In this document: positions 2,572 to 21,858 of the stretch, in pieces
Numbering within the stretch: position 1 is the stretch's first letter
How the letters are laid out: each line of letters opens with the position of its first letter
NCBI GenBank assembly: GCA_965279405.1
Contig: OZ257157.1
Coordinates: forward strand, 3,568,865-3,632,864
Reading direction: 5' to 3'
Source: Ilumatobacteraceae bacterium
Lineage (GTDB): Bacteria; Actinomycetota; Acidimicrobiia; Acidimicrobiales; Ilumatobacteraceae
DNA length: 64,000 nt
Program-made: the position numbers and the translations under genes
Notes under the pieces: model-generated
Database searches by the model: none
What the model was told of the DNA's origin: nothing
What the model saw: the letters and a program-made list of their open reading frames with translations, nothing else

Positions 2572-3279
2572 TCAGGCGTGGTCGTTCGCGTCGTCGGGTC
2601 CGGTGAGTCGGTAGCCGACACGCACTTCGGTGTGGATCACCGGGCGGCGCGGGCCGGTGCCGATCAGGGTGCGGATCCGGCTGACGGCGATGCGCAGCGA
2701 GTTCAGATCCGGGGCGTCGGGCTCGTGGCCCCACATCGCCTTGGCGAGGGTGCTGTACGTCACCACCTTGCCCTCCTGGCGCAGCAGCAGGGTGAGCAGC
2801 GCGAACTGGCGGGCCTGCATGTCGACCGGTCTGCCGTCGACCGTCACCTCGTGTGCGGGCACGTCGAGACGCAGGTCGCCACACTCGAAGCGATCGGCCC
2901 CGGCGATGGCCGCTGCGGTGGCTGCGTGGCGCAGCGAGACGCGGACGCGCGCGAGCAGCACGGGCATGCTGTAGGGCTTGACGACGTAGTCGTCCGCGCC
3001 GCGATCGAGCGCCTCGACCATGCGCTCTTCGACCGCGTCGCCGCTGACGACGATGATGGGGCAGTGCAGCCACACGCGCATGCGCGTGCACACGGTGAGC
3101 CCGTCCATGTCCGGCAGGCCGAGGTCGAGCAGGACGAGATCGGGCGTGAGGTGCTCCAGCGCGGCGAGTGCCTCGACGCCTGAGGGTGCCGTCACCACCG
3201 AGTAGCCGCGGGATTCGAGTGCGATCGACAACGTGCGTCGCTGTGCGGCTTCGTCCTCGACGAGCAGCAGGGTCGTCAT
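2572..3279 (-). CDS. OmpR/PhoB-family response regulator (KdpE-like)
   Basis: Receiver domain: MTTLLLVEDE...LLDLGLPDMDG...VKPYS. C-terminal winged helix: LRIAVSRIRTLIG...VRVGYRL. The stop lies 1 nt from the tRNA 3' end. Confidence 0.9.
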   Translation of the reverse strand: MTTLLLVEDEAAQRRTLSIALESRGYSVVTAPSGVEALAALEHLTPDLVLLDLGLPDMDGLTVCTRMRVWLHCPIIVVSGDAVEERMVEALDRGADDYVVKPYSMPVLLARVRVSLRHAATAAAIAGADRFECGDLRLDVPAHEVTVDGRPVDMQARQFALLTLLLRQEGKVVTYSTLAKAMWGHEPDAPDLNSLRIAVSRIRTLIGTGPRRPVIHTEVRVGYRLTGPDDANDHA

Positions 3280-3409
3280 CGGGCGCGGATGCTATCCGGC
3301 GAGTTCACGGGAGTGCGTTCGGTCAGAAACAGTGTGGAAACAAACACACGCCATTCTGCGGCAGTTCGTCGAGGCCCTCGATGACTGACGCATGGGAAAT
3401 GGAGCACTG

Positions 3410-4991
<1,582 letters not shown>

Positions 4992-13052: not shown

Positions 13053-14378
13053 GTGATCCACGGACCGGACGCGCCGCTCGGCGATCTTGCCGCCAGCGTG
13101 AGCGCGTTCATCGCCGACCGGGTTCGCCAGTCGCCGCTCGGATCGACCGCGACGGCAGCGACGATGGACGGGTTGCTCGCCGGCACCATCACCGACGCCG
13201 GACTCGGCACGGACGCTGCGTGGCAGCGCTTCACCGATGCGATCGTGCCGAACACGGTGGGGCTGGACAGCGAACGGTTCCTGGCGTTCATCCCGGTGTC
13301 GCCGAGTGCGGCCGGTGTGTGGATGGATGCCGCCGTCAGCGCGGCGAACTTCAGCGCCGAGTCGTGGTTGGAGGCCGCCGGCGCGGTGGCCGCCGAGAAC
13401 CAGGCGCTGCAGGTGCTGATGGACGCGGCCGGGATGCCCAACGGTTCAGGCGGGTGCTTCATGAGCGGGGGATCGATCGGCAACCTCTCGGCGCTCGCTG
13501 TTGCGCGCGATCAGGCCGGCGGCCGGCGCGCCGTCGTGGTCGCCGACAGCGCGCACGCCTCAGTCCACAACGCGTTGCACCTGCTGGGCCTCGACGCGGT
13601 GGTGGCCACGACTGACGCGGTCGGCCGATTGACGGGCGACGCCGTGCGAGCCGCTGTCTCAGGACGTACGGACGTCGGCATCGTCGTTGCTGCTGCGGGG
13701 TCGACGAACGGCGGTGTCGTCGACGAACTGACGACAGTTGCCGATGCCGCGGATGAGCTCGACGCGTGGTTGCACGTCGATGGCGCGTACGGCGGTGCCG
13801 CGCTGTTGCTCCCCGAGCTGCAGGCGCTGTTCGCCGGCATCGATCGCGTCGACTCGCTGATCATCGATCCACACAAGTGGCTGTTCTCGCCGGCCGGTTC
13901 GTGCGCGCTGCTGTACCGCTCGCCGGAGCTGGCTGCAGCCGTGCACACCCAGCACGGCCCGTACCTCGACATCCTCCATGGCGACGAGGAACCGGGTTGG
14001 AACCCGAGCGACTACGGCTTCCAGCTCACTCGCCGCGCCAGCGGTCTGCCGCTGTGGTTCGCGCTCGCCGCGCATGGCGTGGACGCGCACCGCGAGGCGA
14101 TCCGCGTCGGCATCTCGCTCGCCCGCACGTGTGCAGATCGGTTCGCCGCGGAGCCGAACGTGGAGCTGGTGCTGCGGCCTCAGCTCGGCGTCGTCGTCTT
14201 CCGCCGCGAGGGTTGGGGTCGCGCGGAGTGGCGGGCGTGGGCCGCTCGATTGCTCGATGACCGCATCGCCTTCGTCGCGCCGACCACGTGGAGCGGCGAA
14301 CCCGTCGGCCGCCTCGTCTTCATGCACCCGCGCACCCCGCCCAGCATCATCGACGACCTCGCTGCCTCGCTCCGCTGA
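13053..14378 (+). CDS. Pyridoxal-dependent (group II) decarboxylase, second paralog
   Basis: SGGSIGNLSALAVAR, LHVDGAYGGAA, and SLIIDPHKWLFSPAGSCALLYR with the PLP Lys. GTG start at 13053. Confidence 0.82.
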   Translation: MIHGPDAPLGDLAASVSAFIADRVRQSPLGSTATAATMDGLLAGTITDAGLGTDAAWQRFTDAIVPNTVGLDSERFLAFIPVSPSAAGVWMDAAVSAANFSAESWLEAAGAVAAENQALQVLMDAAGMPNGSGGCFMSGGSIGNLSALAVARDQAGGRRAVVVADSAHASVHNALHLLGLDAVVATTDAVGRLTGDAVRAAVSGRTDVGIVVAAAGSTNGGVVDELTTVADAADELDAWLHVDGAYGGAALLLPELQALFAGIDRVDSLIIDPHKWLFSPAGSCALLYRSPELAAAVHTQHGPYLDILHGDEEPGWNPSDYGFQLTRRASGLPLWFALAAHGVDAHREAIRVGISLARTCADRFAAEPNVELVLRPQLGVVVFRREGWGRAEWRAWAARLLDDRIAFVAPTTWSGEPVGRLVFMHPRTPPSIIDDLAASLR

Positions 14379-14379
14379 A

Positions 14380-14426
14380 AACTGGATGTCTGACAGCTCG
14401 AATGTCGAGCTGTCAGACATCCAGTT
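14380..14426. terminator. 22-bp perfect palindrome between convergent genes, overlapping the last 4 codons of the minus-strand gene
   Basis: AACTGGATGTCTGACAGCTCGA (14380-14401), loop ATG, then TCGAGCTGTCAGACATCCAGTT (14405-14426). There is no T-tract. Confidence 0.6.
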
Positions 14427-15384
14427 CGCGTGCGGCTGCGAAGGCGGTCCAGATCTCGGGGCGCAGGCGGCCCTTCGGCGGCACGTCGAACCCCGCCGCG
14501 CGGGCCCAGGCGCGGACCTCGGCCGTCGTCGGCTCGGCCGGGGCCAGCGGGCCCGCGGCAGGGAGGCGCTCCTCGAACACAGCGGCAGCGTCGTGCTCGG
14601 CGTGGTGGGCGATCGCTGCGCCGAGGAAGCGGTACGCCCACTCCTGGGCCAAGGGGCGCGTCTCGCAGAACACGATCGGCACGGTGGGGAAGCGGACCTG
14701 CATCTCGGCCAGGCCGTCGGCGACGACGGCCGGGCGGACGAAGCTGAGCTTGAACACCGACGACCAGCGATCCTCCACCACGAGTGCGGCTCGCGGGACA
14801 GAGGCGAGCTCGGCCATCAACGAGCGCAGCTTGCCGGTGGTCAGCGTGCTCGTCAGGTCGGCCAGGCTCTTGCGTTCGACGGTGGCGATGACGAGTCCGT
14901 CGAGGGTGACGGCGTAGTCGCCTGCGGGAAGCGCCTGCGGGCGCGTCGTGGCCTGTTGCTTGCTGAACGTCCACGGGTAGCGCTCGTGCGTGTCGACGAC
15001 GATCTCCAGCACCTGACCCGCAGCGCGGGCCGTCGGCAGCGAGACGTTCGGACGAGCCTGCTTGGCCGTGCGGGCGCTCTGCCAGAAGATCACTTCGCGG
15101 CCGCGGGCCTTGGCGAAGACGAACTGCGAGCGGTTCTCCCGGCCACGATCGAGCACCAGGTCGATCACTGCGCCGCGACGGATGCAGGATCGGACGGGCA
15201 CGCGCTCGACGATCTCCAGATCATCCGGCCACTCGTCGGCGCGATGGCAGTAGACCTTGGCCGTTCGCGGCCACGTGTCGCGCACCTTCAAGGCGATGCC
15301 GCCGGCGCCCATCGGGAGCCGCAGCAGGTACGGCAAGGTCGACGCAGGATCCGGGTTGCGGGCGATCACCAGTTCCAGCGCCAT
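14413..15384 (-). CDS. ERCC4/XPF-type nuclease domain protein with a C-terminal Lsr2-like DNA-binding domain
   Basis: This is the C-terminal 323 aa of ORF 14413..15981, starting at ATG 15384. ERCC4 signature: VVDTHERYPW, GDYAV, VERKSLADL and LVVEDRW. The tail TTAEVRAWARAAGFDVPPKGRLRPEIWTAFAAA resembles the Lsr2 C-terminal domain. Confidence 0.72.
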   Translation of the reverse strand: MALELVIARNPDPASTLPYLLRLPMGAGGIALKVRDTWPRTAKVYCHRADEWPDDLEIVERVPVRSCIRRGAVIDLVLDRGRENRSQFVFAKARGREVIFWQSARTAKQARPNVSLPTARAAGQVLEIVVDTHERYPWTFSKQQATTRPQALPAGDYAVTLDGLVIATVERKSLADLTSTLTTGKLRSLMAELASVPRAALVVEDRWSSVFKLSFVRPAVVADGLAEMQVRFPTVPIVFCETRPLAQEWAYRFLGAAIAHHAEHDAAAVFEERLPAAGPLAPAEPTTAEVRAWARAAGFDVPPKGRLRPEIWTAFAAARELDV

Positions 15385-16430
15385 CAGCGCGACGCTCGCA
15401 GCTCGGGGAGCACCCAGCGAGCGACGCGCTCGGCTTCGTCGTCGAGCGGGTAGCCGGAAAGGATGAACGCGTCGACGCCGGCCGCTGCGTACGCACGGAG
15501 CGTGGCGACGACCTGATCGGGATCGCCGACGATCGCTGCGCCGACGCCACTGCGCGCCACGCCGATGCCGGTCCACAGGTGCGGCTCGACGAAGCCGTCG
15601 TCGCCGGCCGCCTGACGCAGCGCGTCCTGGCGTTGGACACCGACCGAAGCGTGGTCGTGTGCCGCCTGCTTCATCCGCCGCCCGATCTCTGGGTCGAGAT
15701 TGCTGACGAGGTCGGCGGCCGCCTGCCGCGCCTCGGATTCGGTCTCGCGGACGATCACGTGGGTGCGCAGGCCGAAGCGCAGGGTGCGTCCGAAGGTCGT
15801 CGCTCGTGCGCGCATGTCGGCGACGAGCTCGCCGATCGAGGCGACGGTCTCCACCCACATCAGGTAGACGTCGGCGTGCTCGGCTGCGCACGCGCGCGCT
15901 TCGTCGGAGGTGCCGCCGAAGTACATCGGCGGGGGAGTGCGCGTTCGAGTCGGCGCGGTCGGCAGGTCGTAGTGCCACCACTCACCGTTGTGACGAACGT
16001 GATCATCGGTCCAGAACGATCGCAGGAGCCGCATCGCCTCCGCAGTTCGCCGGTAGCGCGATGGGCCGTCGAGCGATTCGCCGGCCAGCTCGCTGGAGAT
16101 GATGTTGATCGTCAGGCGCCCATCCATCGCCTGCTGCAACGATTTCGCCGCGCGGGCGAACATCGGCGGATCGAACTCGCCGACTCGCACCGCGGGGAGC
16201 AGACGCGAGTGAGCGAGCGTCGGTCCGAGCGCCGCGGCGAGCGTCCACGGGTCCATCCCCGGCACGAAGCTCGACGGGATGAGGACGTTGTCGAAGCCGA
16301 GCCGGTCCGCCGTGCCGATGATGTGCGAGTTGTAGGCGAACGTCGCCAGGCGCTGTGGGTCGATCGTCCCGAGGCGCGTCGAGTCACCGCCGCACGATGG
16401 AGCGAACCAGGCGACCTCGAACCTGCTCAC
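15384..16430 (-). CDS. LLM-class (luciferase-like) flavin-dependent oxidoreductase
   Basis: ORF 15384..16628, with the start at GTG 16430 giving VSRFEVAWFAP. It reads GFDNVLIPSS...GRLTINIISS...MYFGGTSDEA...AGVDAFILSGYP. Its stop overlaps the downstream ATG at 15384. Confidence 0.8.
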   Translation of the reverse strand: MSRFEVAWFAPSCGGDSTRLGTIDPQRLATFAYNSHIIGTADRLGFDNVLIPSSFVPGMDPWTLAAALGPTLAHSRLLPAVRVGEFDPPMFARAAKSLQQAMDGRLTINIISSELAGESLDGPSRYRRTAEAMRLLRSFWTDDHVRHNGEWWHYDLPTAPTRTRTPPPMYFGGTSDEARACAAEHADVYLMWVETVASIGELVADMRARATTFGRTLRFGLRTHVIVRETESEARQAAADLVSNLDPEIGRRMKQAAHDHASVGVQRQDALRQAAGDDGFVEPHLWTGIGVARSGVGAAIVGDPDQVVATLRAYAAAGVDAFILSGYPLDDEAERVARWVLPELRASR

Positions 16431-17053
16431 AGCACGATGCGGCCGCTCGGACCGTCGATCGTGGCCGAGAGCCGCGGCGCATCGCCGTCGACGACGACCA
16501 CGCCCGAGGCGGCATCGAGCGCGTCGAGGACGATCTGCACCCGTGTCGGGTCCGGATGCTCGATGCGCAGCTCGACCAGTTGCAGTTCGTGACCCAGCGA
16601 CGCGGTCGGGTGCTCGGAGGATCCCCAATCGATGAGGAACGGGATCACGGCGACGTGCTCACCGACCGACGGACGGAAGGTCAGCTCCCACTCGAGCAGC
16701 ACCCCGTCCGGTCGACGCCGCGACATCGACTGGATGGCGCCAGCGTCGTAACCGACGGCGTTCGCTGCGGCGACGACATCGGCGAGGGGACGTCGCGGAC
16801 GAGCGCACCAACCGACCAACGTCGGCACCGTGATCCGATCGACGCCGAACGGCCGGACACCGTCGTGGTCGGCTTGCTCCACGTCCGGACCGATCAGCTC
16901 GAGGTAGGTGTCGCCGCCGAGGCCGAGCAGCTCGTTGCGCGTGCCGTGGCCGACGTGCGGTCCTCCTGGCGTCGGCGTCACGCCCCAGTGCTCGACGGCG
17001 GTGGCACGCGCCGCGGCGAGGTCCGGCACCGCAACGACGAGGTGGTCGATCAC
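16427..17053 (-). CDS. VOC (glyoxalase/bleomycin-resistance-like) family protein
   Basis: ORF 16427..17341, with the start placed at GTG 17053 giving VIDHLVVAVPDLAAARATAVEHWGV. The upstream ATG at 17122 would overlap the divergent GNAT start. The stop overlaps the LLM GTG as GTGA. Confidence 0.65.
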   Translation of the reverse strand: MIDHLVVAVPDLAAARATAVEHWGVTPTPGGPHVGHGTRNELLGLGGDTYLELIGPDVEQADHDGVRPFGVDRITVPTLVGWCARPRRPLADVVAAANAVGYDAGAIQSMSRRRPDGVLLEWELTFRPSVGEHVAVIPFLIDWGSSEHPTASLGHELQLVELRIEHPDPTRVQIVLDALDAASGVVVVDGDAPRLSATIDGPSGRIVL

Positions 17054-17120
17054 GGCTCCGACAGTAGCCAGCGACAAATGGGTTCGGCCGCTGGCGGCGG
17101 GCCTGCGAGGGTGCCACTTC

Positions 17121-18570: not shown

Positions 18571-19796
18571 AAGGACAGCGGCAGGTTGCTGACGCCTCGG
18601 ATGGTGATTCGGTCGCGCCACTCGGGTGCGCCGGCCAGTTCGAGGTTCGGGAAGCGGCGGATCAGCGTGGTGATGGCCACCTGCGCTTCGAGCTTCGCCA
18701 ACGACGCGCCGAGGCAGTAGTGAACACCGGCGGCGAAGGCGAGGTGGCGGTTGGCGTTCGGGCGGTCGAGACGAAGCTCGTGCGGCGCATCGAAGACCTC
18801 GGGGTCGTGGTTCGCTGCGCCGAGGATCGTTGCCACCAACGTCCCCTTCGGCACGATGATGCCACCGAACTCGACGTCGACCAACGGCACGCGCACGGTG
18901 TTCTGCACGGGCCCGTCGTAGCGCAGCAGCTCGTCGACCGCCTTGGCATCGAGTGACGGATCGTCGCGCCAGCGGCGCAGCTCGTCGGGATGCCGGAGCA
19001 GCGCGAGGGTGCCGTTTCCGATCAGGTTGACGGTGGTCTCGTGTCCGGCGATGTAGAGCAGGGTCACGAACGAGACGAGCTCGGCCGGGCTCAACCGGTC
19101 GCCTGCCTCCTCGGCCTGGATCAGCGCCGACAGCACGTCGTCGCCGAGCGCGTGTCGACGTTCGTCGACGAGGTCGTTGATGTACTCGCCCATCAGCCGG
19201 CCGCAGCGCTCGCTCTCGTCCAGTGTTGCCTCGCTCGCCGTCGGCTCGAGGGCAGCCGTCAGCGCCTGCGACCACTCGCGCACCTCATCGGAGCGTTCGG
19301 TGGGCAGGGCGAGCAGGTCGGAGATGACCTGGAACGGCACCGGGAAGGCGAGGCTGTCGATCAGCTCGATCGAACCCTCGTCCTCGGCGCGGTCGAGGAT
19401 GTCGCCGACCAGCTGCTCGACGCGTGCGCGGAGCTGTTCGATCGCCTTCGGCGTGAACGCCATCGTCACCAGCCGGCGCAGGCGCGTGTGATCGGGCGGG
19501 TCGAGGTTGAGGATCGTCTTCGCCCCGCGCCCCTCGGCGCGCCGGCGTTGGAACCGCTCGCGTCGTGCGAGGCGGACCGGGTCGGTCGGCAACGGCGTGT
19601 GCTCCTCGATGTCGCGAGCGAACTCGGCGCCGCGCAGCGCGCGGGCGACGTCCTCGTAGCGCGACAGCACGATCATCCCCATCGGCGAGCGGTGCACCGG
19701 CTCCAGCTCGCGCAACCGGTCGTAGAAGGGGTATGGATCGGCCCGGAAGAGCGGATCGAACGGGTTGTACAGCAGCTCGGGGGTGTCGATGCTCAT
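18567..19796 (-). CDS. Cytochrome P450
   Basis: This is the C-terminal 409 aa of ORF 18567..20489, starting at ATG 19796 with MSIDTPELLYNPFDP. ExxR motif ELLRYD. Heme loop FAAGVHYCLGASLA. The start overlaps the upstream stop as ATGA. Confidence 0.9.
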   Translation of the reverse strand: MSIDTPELLYNPFDPLFRADPYPFYDRLRELEPVHRSPMGMIVLSRYEDVARALRGAEFARDIEEHTPLPTDPVRLARRERFQRRRAEGRGAKTILNLDPPDHTRLRRLVTMAFTPKAIEQLRARVEQLVGDILDRAEDEGSIELIDSLAFPVPFQVISDLLALPTERSDEVREWSQALTAALEPTASEATLDESERCGRLMGEYINDLVDERRHALGDDVLSALIQAEEAGDRLSPAELVSFVTLLYIAGHETTVNLIGNGTLALLRHPDELRRWRDDPSLDAKAVDELLRYDGPVQNTVRVPLVDVEFGGIIVPKGTLVATILGAANHDPEVFDAPHELRLDRPNANRHLAFAAGVHYCLGASLAKLEAQVAITTLIRRFPNLELAGAPEWRDRITIRGVSNLPLSF

Positions 19797-21154
19797 GCCG
19801 TCACCGTCGATGTCGTGTCGCGCTTGCCGGAGGCGCTGTCGTCGGCCATCCGCTGCAGCGTGGCCTCGAGCTCCAGGTTGCCGGTGGCCTTGGCCCACTG
19901 CTTGGGCAGCGCCGGGAACGAGTAGTCGCCGAGGTCCTTCGGTTGGTAGTGCTCGGCGCGCCGAGCCATCGCCGCTTCGATCGCGGGAGCGAGTCGCTTG
20001 GCCTTCGCCGCGACCTGTGCCTCGTCGCGTTCCATGAACTCGGGCAGCACCTCCTTCCCGAAGATCTCGATCGACTCCATGATGTGCTCGTGCTTGTTGC
20101 GTCCGGCCTGGAGCACGAAGATCACCTGGTCGACGCCGGCCTCCTCGAAGCGGCGCAGGTACTCGCGCACCTGCTGGGGCGTGCCGACGCTGCCGCGCAG
20201 GCCGGTCGAGTCGCCGGCCGCCTGCTTGGCGCCGAGCGTCTCGGCGCGAGCGGCGGCAGCGACGGCCTCGGGGTCGTAGCCCTGTGCGGCACGACGGTCG
20301 ACGTACTCGGCCCACACGTCTGTCTTCGCCGGGCGGTGCTCGCCGAAGACGTAGAAGTGGCCGAGCGAGTAGCCGAAGAAGTTGGAGCCCTCGGCGCCGC
20401 GACGGATGGCTTCCTCCTCGTCGTGGTGCATCATCATCGGGCTGACGCAGGCGACCTGTGGGTTGACGGCGAAGCCGACGGGCACGCACTCCTCGGCGAA
20501 GGTGCGCTCGTACTCGCTGACCCAGTTGACGGCTTCCTCGGGGTCGATGAACGCGAAGGTCAGCGCGCCGATGCCCTTCTGCGCAGCCAGGAGGATGGTG
20601 TCACGGCGTGAGCACGCCACCCACAGGGGCGGGTGCGGCTTCTGCATCGGCTTGGGGATGACGTTGCGCGGCGGCATCGTGACGTACTTGCCGTCCACGC
20701 CGGTGAACGGCGTCTCGGCCATGCAGCGCACCGCGGTCTCGAGACCTTCGAGCCAGGCGTCGCGCTTCTCCAGCGGGTTGACGCCGAAGCCGCCGAGCTC
20801 GGCTTCGCTGGAGGACTCGCCGCTGCCGAACTCGACGCGACCGTTTGAGACGAGGTCGAGCATGCTCACTCGCTCGGCCGTGCGCGCCGGGTGGTTGAAC
20901 TGCGGTGCGGTGAGGATGATGCCGTGGCCGAGACGCATGTTCTTCGTGCGCTGGCTGCACGCGGCGAGGAACACCTCGGGCGCGGAGGAGTGGCTGTACT
21001 CCTCGAGGAAGTGGTGCTCCACCTCCCACACGTACTGGATGCCGAGCGAGTCGGCCAGCTCCACCTGATCGAGCGCGTCCTGCACCAGTTGGCGCTCGCC
21101 GTCGTCGCCCCAGGGGCGGCCCATCTGGTGCTCGTAGAAGATGCCGAACTTCAT
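19793..21154 (-). CDS. LLM-class flavin-dependent oxidoreductase (453 aa)
   Basis: MKFGIFYEHQMGRPWG...QYVWEVEHHFLEEYSHSSAPEVFL...RVEFGSGESSS. This is bacterial luciferase-like. Confidence 0.85.
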   Translation of the reverse strand: MKFGIFYEHQMGRPWGDDGERQLVQDALDQVELADSLGIQYVWEVEHHFLEEYSHSSAPEVFLAACSQRTKNMRLGHGIILTAPQFNHPARTAERVSMLDLVSNGRVEFGSGESSSEAELGGFGVNPLEKRDAWLEGLETAVRCMAETPFTGVDGKYVTMPPRNVIPKPMQKPHPPLWVACSRRDTILLAAQKGIGALTFAFIDPEEAVNWVSEYERTFAEECVPVGFAVNPQVACVSPMMMHHDEEEAIRRGAEGSNFFGYSLGHFYVFGEHRPAKTDVWAEYVDRRAAQGYDPEAVAAAARAETLGAKQAAGDSTGLRGSVGTPQQVREYLRRFEEAGVDQVIFVLQAGRNKHEHIMESIEIFGKEVLPEFMERDEAQVAAKAKRLAPAIEAAMARRAEHYQPKDLGDYSFPALPKQWAKATGNLELEATLQRMADDSASGKRDTTSTVTA

Positions 21155-21210: not shown

Positions 21211-21858
21211 ATCGGAACACCACGCCTCCCCAGAGCGGAACGGCGCGAGCAGGTCCTGCGCGCTGCGGCGAGCGCCTTCGTCCGCGCCGGCTTCGACGGG
21301 ACGTCGATGGACGACGTCGGCCGCGAGGCGGGCGTGACGCGGCTCATCGTCTACCGCATCTTCGAGACGAAGGAAGCGCTGTACCGGGCGGTGCTCGACG
21401 AGGTCAGCGCGGACCTGTACGCGTCCTTCAACGAGCACGACGCGAGAGAGAACGGCGTGTCACGCCTCCTGCTCGACGTGGCCCGGCGGCACCCCGACGG
21501 GTTCCGGTTGCTGTGGCGCCATGCCAACCACGAGCCGGAGTTCGCCGAGTACGCGCGCGTGTTCCGCGACCTCGTCACCGCGTACACCGAGACGTTGCTC
21601 GGCGAGCACGTCGGCGACGCGCTGACGCGCCACTGGATGGCGCAGACGTTGGTCGGCTACCACTACGACGGGTTGTGCACCTGGCTCGACGACGGCGATG
21701 TGGCGCGCGACGACGAGTACCTGGCGATGGTCAGTGCCGGTTCACGCGCTCTGGTGAGCGCCTGGTTGCCGGACGCGTTGCCTGCGGGCGTCAGCCCGGC
21801 AGGCTCTCCTCGATCTTCGCGACCAGCGCCGGGTCCTCGGGGGCGACCATCGGGCTGA
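21211..21858 (+). CDS. TetR/AcrR family transcription regulator (start codon unresolved)
   Basis: ORF 21307..21858 begins inside the HTH (MDDVGREAGVTRLIVYRIFETKEALY). The same frame reads RAERREQVLRAAASAFVRAGFDGTS upstream, which is helix 1. There is no in-frame ATG, GTG or TTG back to TAG 21199-21201. The candidate starts are ATC 21211 and CTG 21256. Confidence 0.65.
   Translation: MGTPRLPRAERREQVLRAAASAFVRAGFDGTSMDDVGREAGVTRLIVYRIFETKEALYRAVLDEVSADLYASFNEHDARENGVSRLLLDVARRHPDGFRLLWRHANHEPEFAEYARVFRDLVTAYTETLLGEHVGDALTRHWMAQTLVGYHYDGLCTWLDDGDVARDDEYLAMVSAGSRALVSAWLPDALPAGVSPAGSPRSSRPAPGPRGRPSG

Follow-up and report, generated by a model that had tools for sequence, protein, structure and literature searches.

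The minus strand of a 64,000-nucleotide stretch of the genome of an Ilumatobacteraceae bacterium (GenBank assembly GCA_965279405.1, contig OZ257157.1; hereafter the window) encodes a 323-aa protein in which an N-terminal β-barrel, a nuclease domain and a small DNA-binding tail are joined (Table 1). Judged by profile, catalytic motif and predicted fold, this protein is a member of the ERCC4 superfamily, and from the combined analysis we lean, with modest confidence, towards reading it as a structure-specific endonuclease. It would belong, as a stand-alone enzyme, to a large branch of XPF/Mus81/Hef nucleases in bacteria and be anchored on duplex DNA by its Lsr2-type tail. Comparison of loci indicates that the nuclease gene stands alone, with no obligate partner gene, and that the LLM-class oxidoreductase and VOC genes packed against it in the window are incidental neighbours.

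An earlier note on this DNA, made from the letters alone, had read an ERCC4/XPF core in the protein, followed by a tail resembling the C-terminal domain of Lsr2 with its basic G-R hook, and both assignments held. A Pfam scan of the 323-aa protein that admitted matches at E up to 1 returned only two families, ERCC4 (PF02732; E 5.2e-15, 56 bits against a cut-off of 24, residues 130–253) and Lsr2_DNA-bd (PF23359; E 6.2e-8, 32.3 bits against a cut-off of 26.9, residues 284–318), and as profile matches both lie far beyond chance. The catalytic signature GDXnERKX3D is intact, as is the acidic pair upstream of it (D131, E134, G155-D156-Y157, E170-R171-K172 and D176), and the motif aligns with that of human XPF. 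These residues are invariant in 32 close relatives and in 7 plasmid-borne copies (54–59% identity), while in 28 divergent representatives (36–54% identity), each of which matches the ERCC4 profile, the G-D and E-R of the core and E134 are likewise invariant. Since the catalytic residues do not vary, the enzyme would be expected to be active.

The structure prediction is in agreement with these assignments. An AF2 model of the full protein, built on a 32-sequence alignment (mean pLDDT 82.5), comprises an all-β segment (residues 1–104), a low-confidence linker (104–121), an α/β nuclease domain (126–240), a long helix (243–273) and a two-helix tail (287–322). When the nuclease domain was searched with Foldseek it matched Hef (1j22, E 4.5e-8), Aeropyrum pernix XPF, human XPF and Mus81, with E values ranging from 4.5e-8 to 1e-4. 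The archaeal enzymes, the short XPF of A. pernix (2bgw/2bhn) and Hef of Pyrococcus furiosus (1j22/1j24), have the ERCC4 fold in common with the window protein (Foldseek E 4.5e-8 to 1e-6; a template-modelling (TM) score of 0.78, relative to the target, for Hef), together with the catalytic motif D..E, GDY, ERK...D and a general plan in which a small binder of duplex DNA lies C-terminal to the nuclease domain. They differ in what that binder is, because the archaeal proteins have a C-terminal (HhH)2 whereas the window family has an Lsr2-type domain, a winged helix-turn-helix or nothing at this position; no HhH family was matched in the Pfam scan of the 323-aa protein, and the (HhH)2 that characterises XPF, Mus81 and Hef was thus not found. 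The window family also differs in having an extra N-terminal barrel, in being bacterial and often plasmid-borne, and in its identity to the archaeal enzymes of only about 20–25%, and unlike them it has no PCNA-type partner known to us.

The Lsr2-type tail, a minor-groove DNA binder by type, was also matched by a PHROG Lsr2-like family (2.9e-6), and its two helices (residues 287–296 and 309–322) are predicted at pLDDT 89–96. The basic hook is K304-G305-R306 in the window copy and R/K-G-R across the family; G305 never varies and R306 rarely does. Lsr2 itself, a nucleoid-associated xenogeneic silencer of mycobacteria (2kng, 6qkp), has the same two-helix C-terminal domain and a loop with an R-G-R-type hook, and the direct sequence match between its PDB chains and the window protein is weak (E about 0.6). 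The Lsr2 silencer, however, has an N-terminal oligomerisation domain, whereas in the window protein the DNA-binding domain is instead the tail of an enzyme. Even with Pfam matches admitted up to E 1, the 323-aa protein gave none to the Lsr2 dimerisation/oligomerisation domain, and its N-terminus is the β-barrel; since the oligomerisation domain is absent, the protein is not an Lsr2 nucleoid protein. A C-terminal Lsr2 module on a DNA enzyme is likewise seen in type II methyltransferases and phage proteins (PADLOC PDLC03328, PHROG 1223/31427), although these have another kind of catalytic domain and the window nuclease showed no tie to restriction-modification.

The N-terminal domain and ERCC4 core, together about 260 aa, are constant in divergent members of the family, whereas the tail differs. 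Among the 28 divergent representatives, the tail is of the Lsr2 type in 3 and a DeoR/MarR-type winged helix in about 4 (examples come from a Trueperaceae and a Bacillota metagenome-assembled genome (MAG)), and the remainder have no recognised tail. This comparison of sequences shows the Lsr2 tail as an exchangeable accessory, relatives in other phyla carrying a winged helix or no tail, and on the same comparison it is an accessory of the Actinomycetota branch. The RefSeq name 'histone-like nucleoid-structuring protein Lsr2' is attached to a number of full-length nuclease copies (plasmid loci L167 and L168; hits H4–H6 and H8). Applied to copies with an intact ERCC4 domain and without the oligomerisation domain, this naming is likely to be a systematic misannotation.

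The first 120 or so residues, which the earlier note had found unrecognisable, indeed match no Pfam, NCBIfam or PHROG model; a PADLOC scan of the N-terminal domain was empty, and a profile of its family, compared with the PDB allowing E values up to 10, found no match. Structure prediction assigned residues 1–104 to a barrel like that of the LigD 3'-phosphoesterase (PE) domain. AF2 predicts the domain alone at pLDDT 88.8, and Foldseek matched it to 3p43 (TM 0.75), 3n9d (0.60), 3p4h (0.59) and 5dmp (0.54; rank 6, probability 0.93), all of them PE domains, with probabilities of 0.93–1.0 for the four; the other confident structural neighbour was one 827-aa viral protein. The β-barrel fold is therefore what the N-terminal 104 residues have in common with LigD PE (3n9b/3n9d, 3p43, 3p4h, 5dmp), and no relationship is detectable at the level of sequence. 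In the sole register given by hhalign, the HYD segment of PE falls on PYL, so that the Mn ligands His and Asp stand opposite the invariant Pro18 and Leu20. The residues of the domain that are invariant across divergent members are P24, P39, C46, P53, G71, R80 and W101; no His, Asp or Glu is invariant across the family, and neither the Mn-binding His-His-Asp site of PE nor its catalytic Arg, His and Tyr are retained. Membership of the PE family was rejected because the profile and active-site tests both failed, and the fold resemblance was kept. As modelled, then, the N-terminal domain is a PE-like fold without the phosphoesterase site, and phosphoesterase activity would not be expected of it.

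The barrel is joined to the nuclease domain by a basic linker, of which residues 104–121 have pLDDT below 50 and are predicted to be disordered. It is among the best-conserved stretches of the protein, with the pattern FWQSARTAKQARPxVxxPTARAxG, and this extends to relatives at 40% identity. R105, T106, Q109, A110, R111, P112, P117, R120 and G123 do not vary among close relatives, and the pattern ARP..R.P.AR persists in distant ones. The linker could be a DNA-binding or partner-binding arm.

Taken together with the behaviour of the superfamily, these features suggest how the protein might work. It would be a metal-dependent endonuclease that probably works as a homodimer, as archaeal XPF and Hef do, and its substrates would be branched DNA at junctions between duplex and single strand, 3' flaps, forks and nicked junctions among them. 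In place of the (HhH)2 of archaeal XPF, the Lsr2 tail would anchor the enzyme on the adjacent duplex. The Lsr2 domain prefers AT-rich DNA, and if the tail is Lsr2-like in its behaviour it would favour AT-rich minor grooves. The degenerate PE-like barrel, with the basic linker, may contact a DNA end, the junction or a partner protein, and would not be a second catalytic site. Such an activity might serve repair and recombination of the chromosome, the upkeep of plasmids and transposons, or an attack on foreign DNA.

In the window the nuclease gene is packed against the LLM and VOC genes (Table 1). The gene overlaps described in the earlier note were borne out both by the sequence and by an independent gene call based on third-codon-position GC content (GC3), which gave the identical three minus-strand genes and coordinates: the VOC stop and the LLM GTG overlap as GTGA at 16427–16430, and in the sequence TGATG the LLM stop (15386–15384) and the nuclease ATG at 15384 share one A. 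A mechanically listed open reading frame (ORF) of 522 aa was ruled out as the nuclease gene because the starts of homologues lie no more than a few residues from the ATG of the 323-aa frame. The NCBIfam models closest to the LLM protein are those for alkanesulfonate monooxygenase, which it matches at 263–264 bits against cut-offs of 510–518; it is therefore described as an SsuD-like LLM and not as an SsuD equivalog.

Table 1. Features of the nuclease gene, its protein domains and its surroundings. Coordinates are positions in the window.
Feature	Coordinates	Strand	Description
PLP-decarboxylase-like gene	13053–14378		Convergent with the nuclease gene
Perfect 23-bp hairpin	14379–14427	none	Between convergent stop codons; RNA fold −45.3 kcal/mol, z −11.5
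Three-domain nuclease gene	14413–15384	−	323 aa; PE-like N-terminal domain, ERCC4, Lsr2-type tail; Pfam, more than 6,600 homologues, AF2
Lsr2-type DNA-binding domain	14431–14535	−	Residues 284–318; two helices, loop with K304-G305-R306
ERCC4 (XPF/Mus81/Hef-type) nuclease domain	14626–15009	−	Residues 126–253; Pfam, Foldseek, invariant motif
Basic linker	15010–15072	−	Residues 105–125; low confidence over 104–121
N-terminal all-β domain	15073–15384	−	Residues 1–104; LigD 3'-phosphoesterase-like fold, no metal-binding site
LLM-class flavin-dependent oxidoreductase gene, SsuD-like	15384–16430	−	348 aa; Pfam Bac_luciferase E 1.9e-46
VOC / Glyoxalase_3 gene	16427–17053	−	208 aa; Pfam PF13468 E 9.5e-35; first gene of the local operon
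−10-like hexamer TACTGT	17061–17066	−	Ends 7 nt before the VOC GTG
GNAT-like gene	starts 17121		Divergent

The functional coupling to a flavin monooxygenase and a VOC protein that the earlier note had proposed was not upheld when loci were compared. A set of 83 loci with nuclease relatives, 66 of which had at least 2 kb of upstream sequence, was searched by tblastn with the window LLM and VOC proteins and three other neighbours. Among the 82 loci other than that of the window, the window neighbours were recovered only in one, L004, which is from the same species at 99% identity, and the operon-like packing is present there and in the window genome; in the 81 loci outside the window species LLM and VOC were absent from beside the nuclease gene. 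Three long contigs with nuclease relatives had unrelated neighbourhoods, clustering of ORFs over the 83 loci found nothing shared except the nuclease gene itself and its shadow ORFs, and a census by Pfam family of the 150 genes immediately flanking the nuclease gene at 77 loci placed none of the families in more than 4 genes, with Bac_luciferase and two Glyoxalase families at a background level of 2 each. Around LLM orthologues in 80 metagenome loci (33 of them full-length, 70–80% identity) there was neither a VOC nor a nuclease gene. The census and a PADLOC scan also found no toxin-antitoxin, methyltransferase or PADLOC defence partner.

These comparisons show the translational coupling to LLM and VOC as a species-specific operon capture without functional meaning. 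The idea that VOC, LLM and nuclease form one functional module, acting on oxidised or modified bases or in some unrecognised defence or repair process, can draw on the GTGA and TGATG junctions in the window genome and on the retention of the arrangement in L004, but with the trio missing from all the other sets of loci just described, and the LLM and glyoxalase families at background among neighbours, we regard it as highly improbable; the processing of modified or damaged bases, which the earlier note had raised, found no comparative support. It also counts against such a module that the window has another, unrelated LLM gene (19793–21154, minus strand), and such genes may be frequent in the genome. 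This second LLM gene overlaps a cytochrome P450 gene (18567–19796, minus strand) by 4 nt, and a TetR-like gene (21307–21858) comes next after the pair. Overlapping oxidoreductase pairs thus seem common in this region of the window, making the LLM adjacency of the nuclease gene less remarkable.

Signals for transcription were sought at both ends of the cluster. The hairpin listed in Table 1 spans the last codons and stop of the nuclease gene, and 1 nt separates its end from the PLP-decarboxylase-like gene's stop. None of the shuffled sequences folds as stably, and it was revealed by RNA folding, having been missed by a scan for consensus terminators; it is probably a bidirectional terminator. 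At the other end, the hexamer TACTGT is probably, from its sequence and position, the promoter of a leaderless VOC-LLM-nuclease transcript. In leaderless promoters of actinobacteria an NANNNT hexamer is placed just ahead of the start codon, and such a hexamer, mostly CAGACT, ends 5–9 nt before the nuclease start in 48 of 79 other loci, compared with about 9 occurrences in comparable upstream background windows. This enrichment indicates that leaderless transcription is widespread in these Acidimicrobiia. The window nuclease gene has no −10-like signal of its own because its start overlaps the LLM stop. Elsewhere the upstream neighbour of the nuclease gene is divergent in 35 of 71 cases, and overlaps or lies within 20 nt on the same strand in only 8 of 71. 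Outside the window species, the comparison therefore shows the nuclease gene as usually monocistronic, with its own putative leaderless-type promoter signal.

The family is large, and chromosomes and plasmids of Actinomycetota commonly carry it. A word-indexed search found more than 6,600 relatives, an exhaustive search of 50%-identity representatives gave 315 clusters below E 1e-30, and a scan in which each GTDB species was represented by a single genome yielded at least 531 loci, the best of them an Ilumatobacteraceae MAG with 99% identity. The best 120 relatives have 72–80% identity and nearly all have both Pfam domains; the few with names among them are labelled Acidimicrobiia, Ilumatobacteraceae or Desertimonas. 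An exact-sequence contig look-up of the window protein gave no record. Identities of 70–80% among the Acidimicrobiia copies might have been taken as a sign of unusual constraint; this was rejected, as LLM orthologues from comparable samples resemble one another to the same degree. Database names for the relatives are "ERCC4 domain-containing protein", "Lsr2 family protein" and "hypothetical protein". The catalytic family is well known, but the architecture found here, in which a degenerate LigD-PE barrel, an ERCC4 domain and a swappable DNA anchor are combined, is undescribed in the searchable literature. To our knowledge, hardly any work exists on members of the XPF/Mus81 superfamily from bacteria.

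A tblastn search of plasmid records gave 24 with a match, of which 22 cover at least 80% of the protein with 54–58% identity; one of the 24, on a Rhodoferax plasmid, is a partial, ERCC4-only match. The hosts are Mycobacterium avium, M. intracellulare, M. chimaera, M. lentiflavum, M. ulcerans, M. liflandii and M. pseudoshottsii (the last three with pMUM plasmids), Mycolicibacterium chubuense (in three places), Rhodococcus, Streptomyces and Pseudonocardia. Several plasmids or genomes have more than one copy: there are two copies in one Acidimicrobiales MAG (loci L056 and L072) and, on the plasmids NC_018022.1 and NZ_CP012886.2, three places on pMYCCH.01 and two on an M. intracellulare plasmid. 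On M. avium p2-JPH1 (L164, 7995–9810) and M. liflandii pMUM002 (L165, 7995–11099) the gene adjoins IS21 istB/istA and integrases and ends 38–53 nt from the convergent istB stop, so that the end of the IS21 element must abut or overlap the 3' end of the nuclease gene. A Rhodococcus plasmid copy is beside a Tn7-like tnsA-tnsB-tnsC-tniQ set, a Pseudonocardia copy beside a Tn3-type transposase and a serine recombinase, and on a 21-kb M. chimaera plasmid the gene lies downstream of a serine recombinase (resolvase) in the same orientation. Other neighbours of plasmid copies are IS110 and toxin-antitoxin modules.

Among chromosomal loci, one from Acidimicrobiales (L001) has the nuclease gene among PemK, HNH and GmrSD genes. 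Other contexts are plainly housekeeping-like. In one locus (L080, 2679–4509) a family member (2915–3871) sits inside a cluster of six tRNA genes, with His and Arg directly upstream and Gly, Pro, Lys and Leu downstream; tRNA-Arg occupies 2833–2907 and the nuclease match runs from 2915, placing the start codon a few bases past the 3' end of the tRNA. No family member was found in IMG/VR viral contigs, and phage GenBank records gave only a weak, ERCC4-only match in a Halorubrum virus. When PADLOC was run on the 323-aa protein only the Lsr2 tail matched, through a methyltransferase model (PDLC03328), and there was no PADLOC model match for the nuclease, the N-terminal domain, LLM or VOC.

Several of our observations weigh against the view that the protein is a structure-specific endonuclease of the XPF/Mus81/Hef type. 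Its dimerisation and substrate preference are extrapolated from the superfamily. The PE likeness of its N-terminal domain is one of fold alone, since an hhalign comparison with the four PE domains gave E 0.12 over 16 columns, which is not significant. Neither actinobacterial LexA boxes nor RecA-NDp promoters were found upstream of 80 homologues, and there is therefore no sign of induction by DNA damage. The searchable literature yielded no paper on this fusion or its family. Plasmid copies lie beside IS21, Tn7-like and Tn3 elements and resolvases, and a tail-less relative (P0213) is in a defence-like, integrase-flanked island with two tyrosine integrases (L176, 564–9853). The plasmid and island contexts fit a role with mobile elements at least as well as they fit chromosomal repair. 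One such role would be that of a mobile-element-associated nuclease in defence or inter-element conflict, its Lsr2 tail guiding ERCC4 to AT-rich, horizontally acquired DNA, as the cutting counterpart of xenogeneic silencing borne by plasmids and islands in a high-GC host. The number of plasmid records with nearly full-length matches and the presence of several copies on some plasmids would be in keeping with this, as would the transposons, resolvases and toxin-antitoxin modules nearby, the company of L001, the variation of gene context between lineages and the established preference of the Lsr2 domain for AT-rich DNA. P0213, moreover, is directly upstream of Multi_ubiq, ThiF/E1-like (DUF6791) and BubE genes, and Multi_ubiq, E1 and BubE make up a ubiquitin-like conjugation set of a kind linked to phage defence. 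Nevertheless we think a role in defence doubtful: PADLOC recognises neither the nuclease nor the N-terminal domain, the 150-neighbour census found no conserved partner or immunity gene, the family is missing from the viral contigs, and many chromosomal contexts are ordinary, with integrases and Mu-type transposases each making up 2 of the 150 neighbours. The window, at about 69% G+C, shows no compositional break around the three-gene cluster, and the tail is dispensable in many relatives. A fuller version, in which the Lsr2 tail of a mobile-element-borne nuclease delivers it to AT-rich foreign DNA, or to the intermediates of that DNA's replication and recombination, in high-GC Actinomycetota, cleavage complements Lsr2-mediated silencing and the degenerate PE barrel senses DNA ends, is in our estimation less likely again.

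The same mobile contexts could instead reflect a helper in plasmid or transposon maintenance, which would resolve branched intermediates of replication, recombination or transposition together with resolvases or DDE transposases. Its position behind the serine recombinase of the 21-kb M. chimaera plasmid, next to the recombinase in Pseudonocardia, against IS21 on p2-JPH1 and pMUM002 and beside the Tn7-like set in Rhodococcus would all suit such a helper. We nonetheless consider it unlikely, because insertion sequences are abundant on actinobacterial plasmids and adjacency to them may be chance, because the partner element is different in every case, and because most Acidimicrobiia copies are chromosomal and adjoin no mobile-element gene. 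Far less probable is that the protein has no catalytic activity and is a nucleoid-associated or regulatory factor, an Lsr2 paralogue in which a dead nuclease fold serves as scaffold. The name that NCBI gives to several copies would favour it, but the catalytic residues of ERCC4 stay unchanged even in widely divergent relatives, the Lsr2 oligomerisation domain is absent, and it is the tail that is missing in many relatives and the nuclease core never.

Should the protein prove to cut flaps or junctions, actinobacterial DNA repair or plasmid maintenance would gain an enzyme of this superfamily; should AT-rich DNA be its target, xenogeneic silencing and DNA cleavage would be connected. The apparent link to oxygen and small-molecule chemistry in the window is an accident of gene packing, and labels in databases of the kind "histone-like nucleoid-structuring protein Lsr2" are misleading for these proteins. 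The family is carried by the pMUM mycolactone plasmids, by plasmids of M. chimaera and M. avium and by large catabolic plasmids of Rhodococcus, which are plasmids of clinical and ecological relevance.

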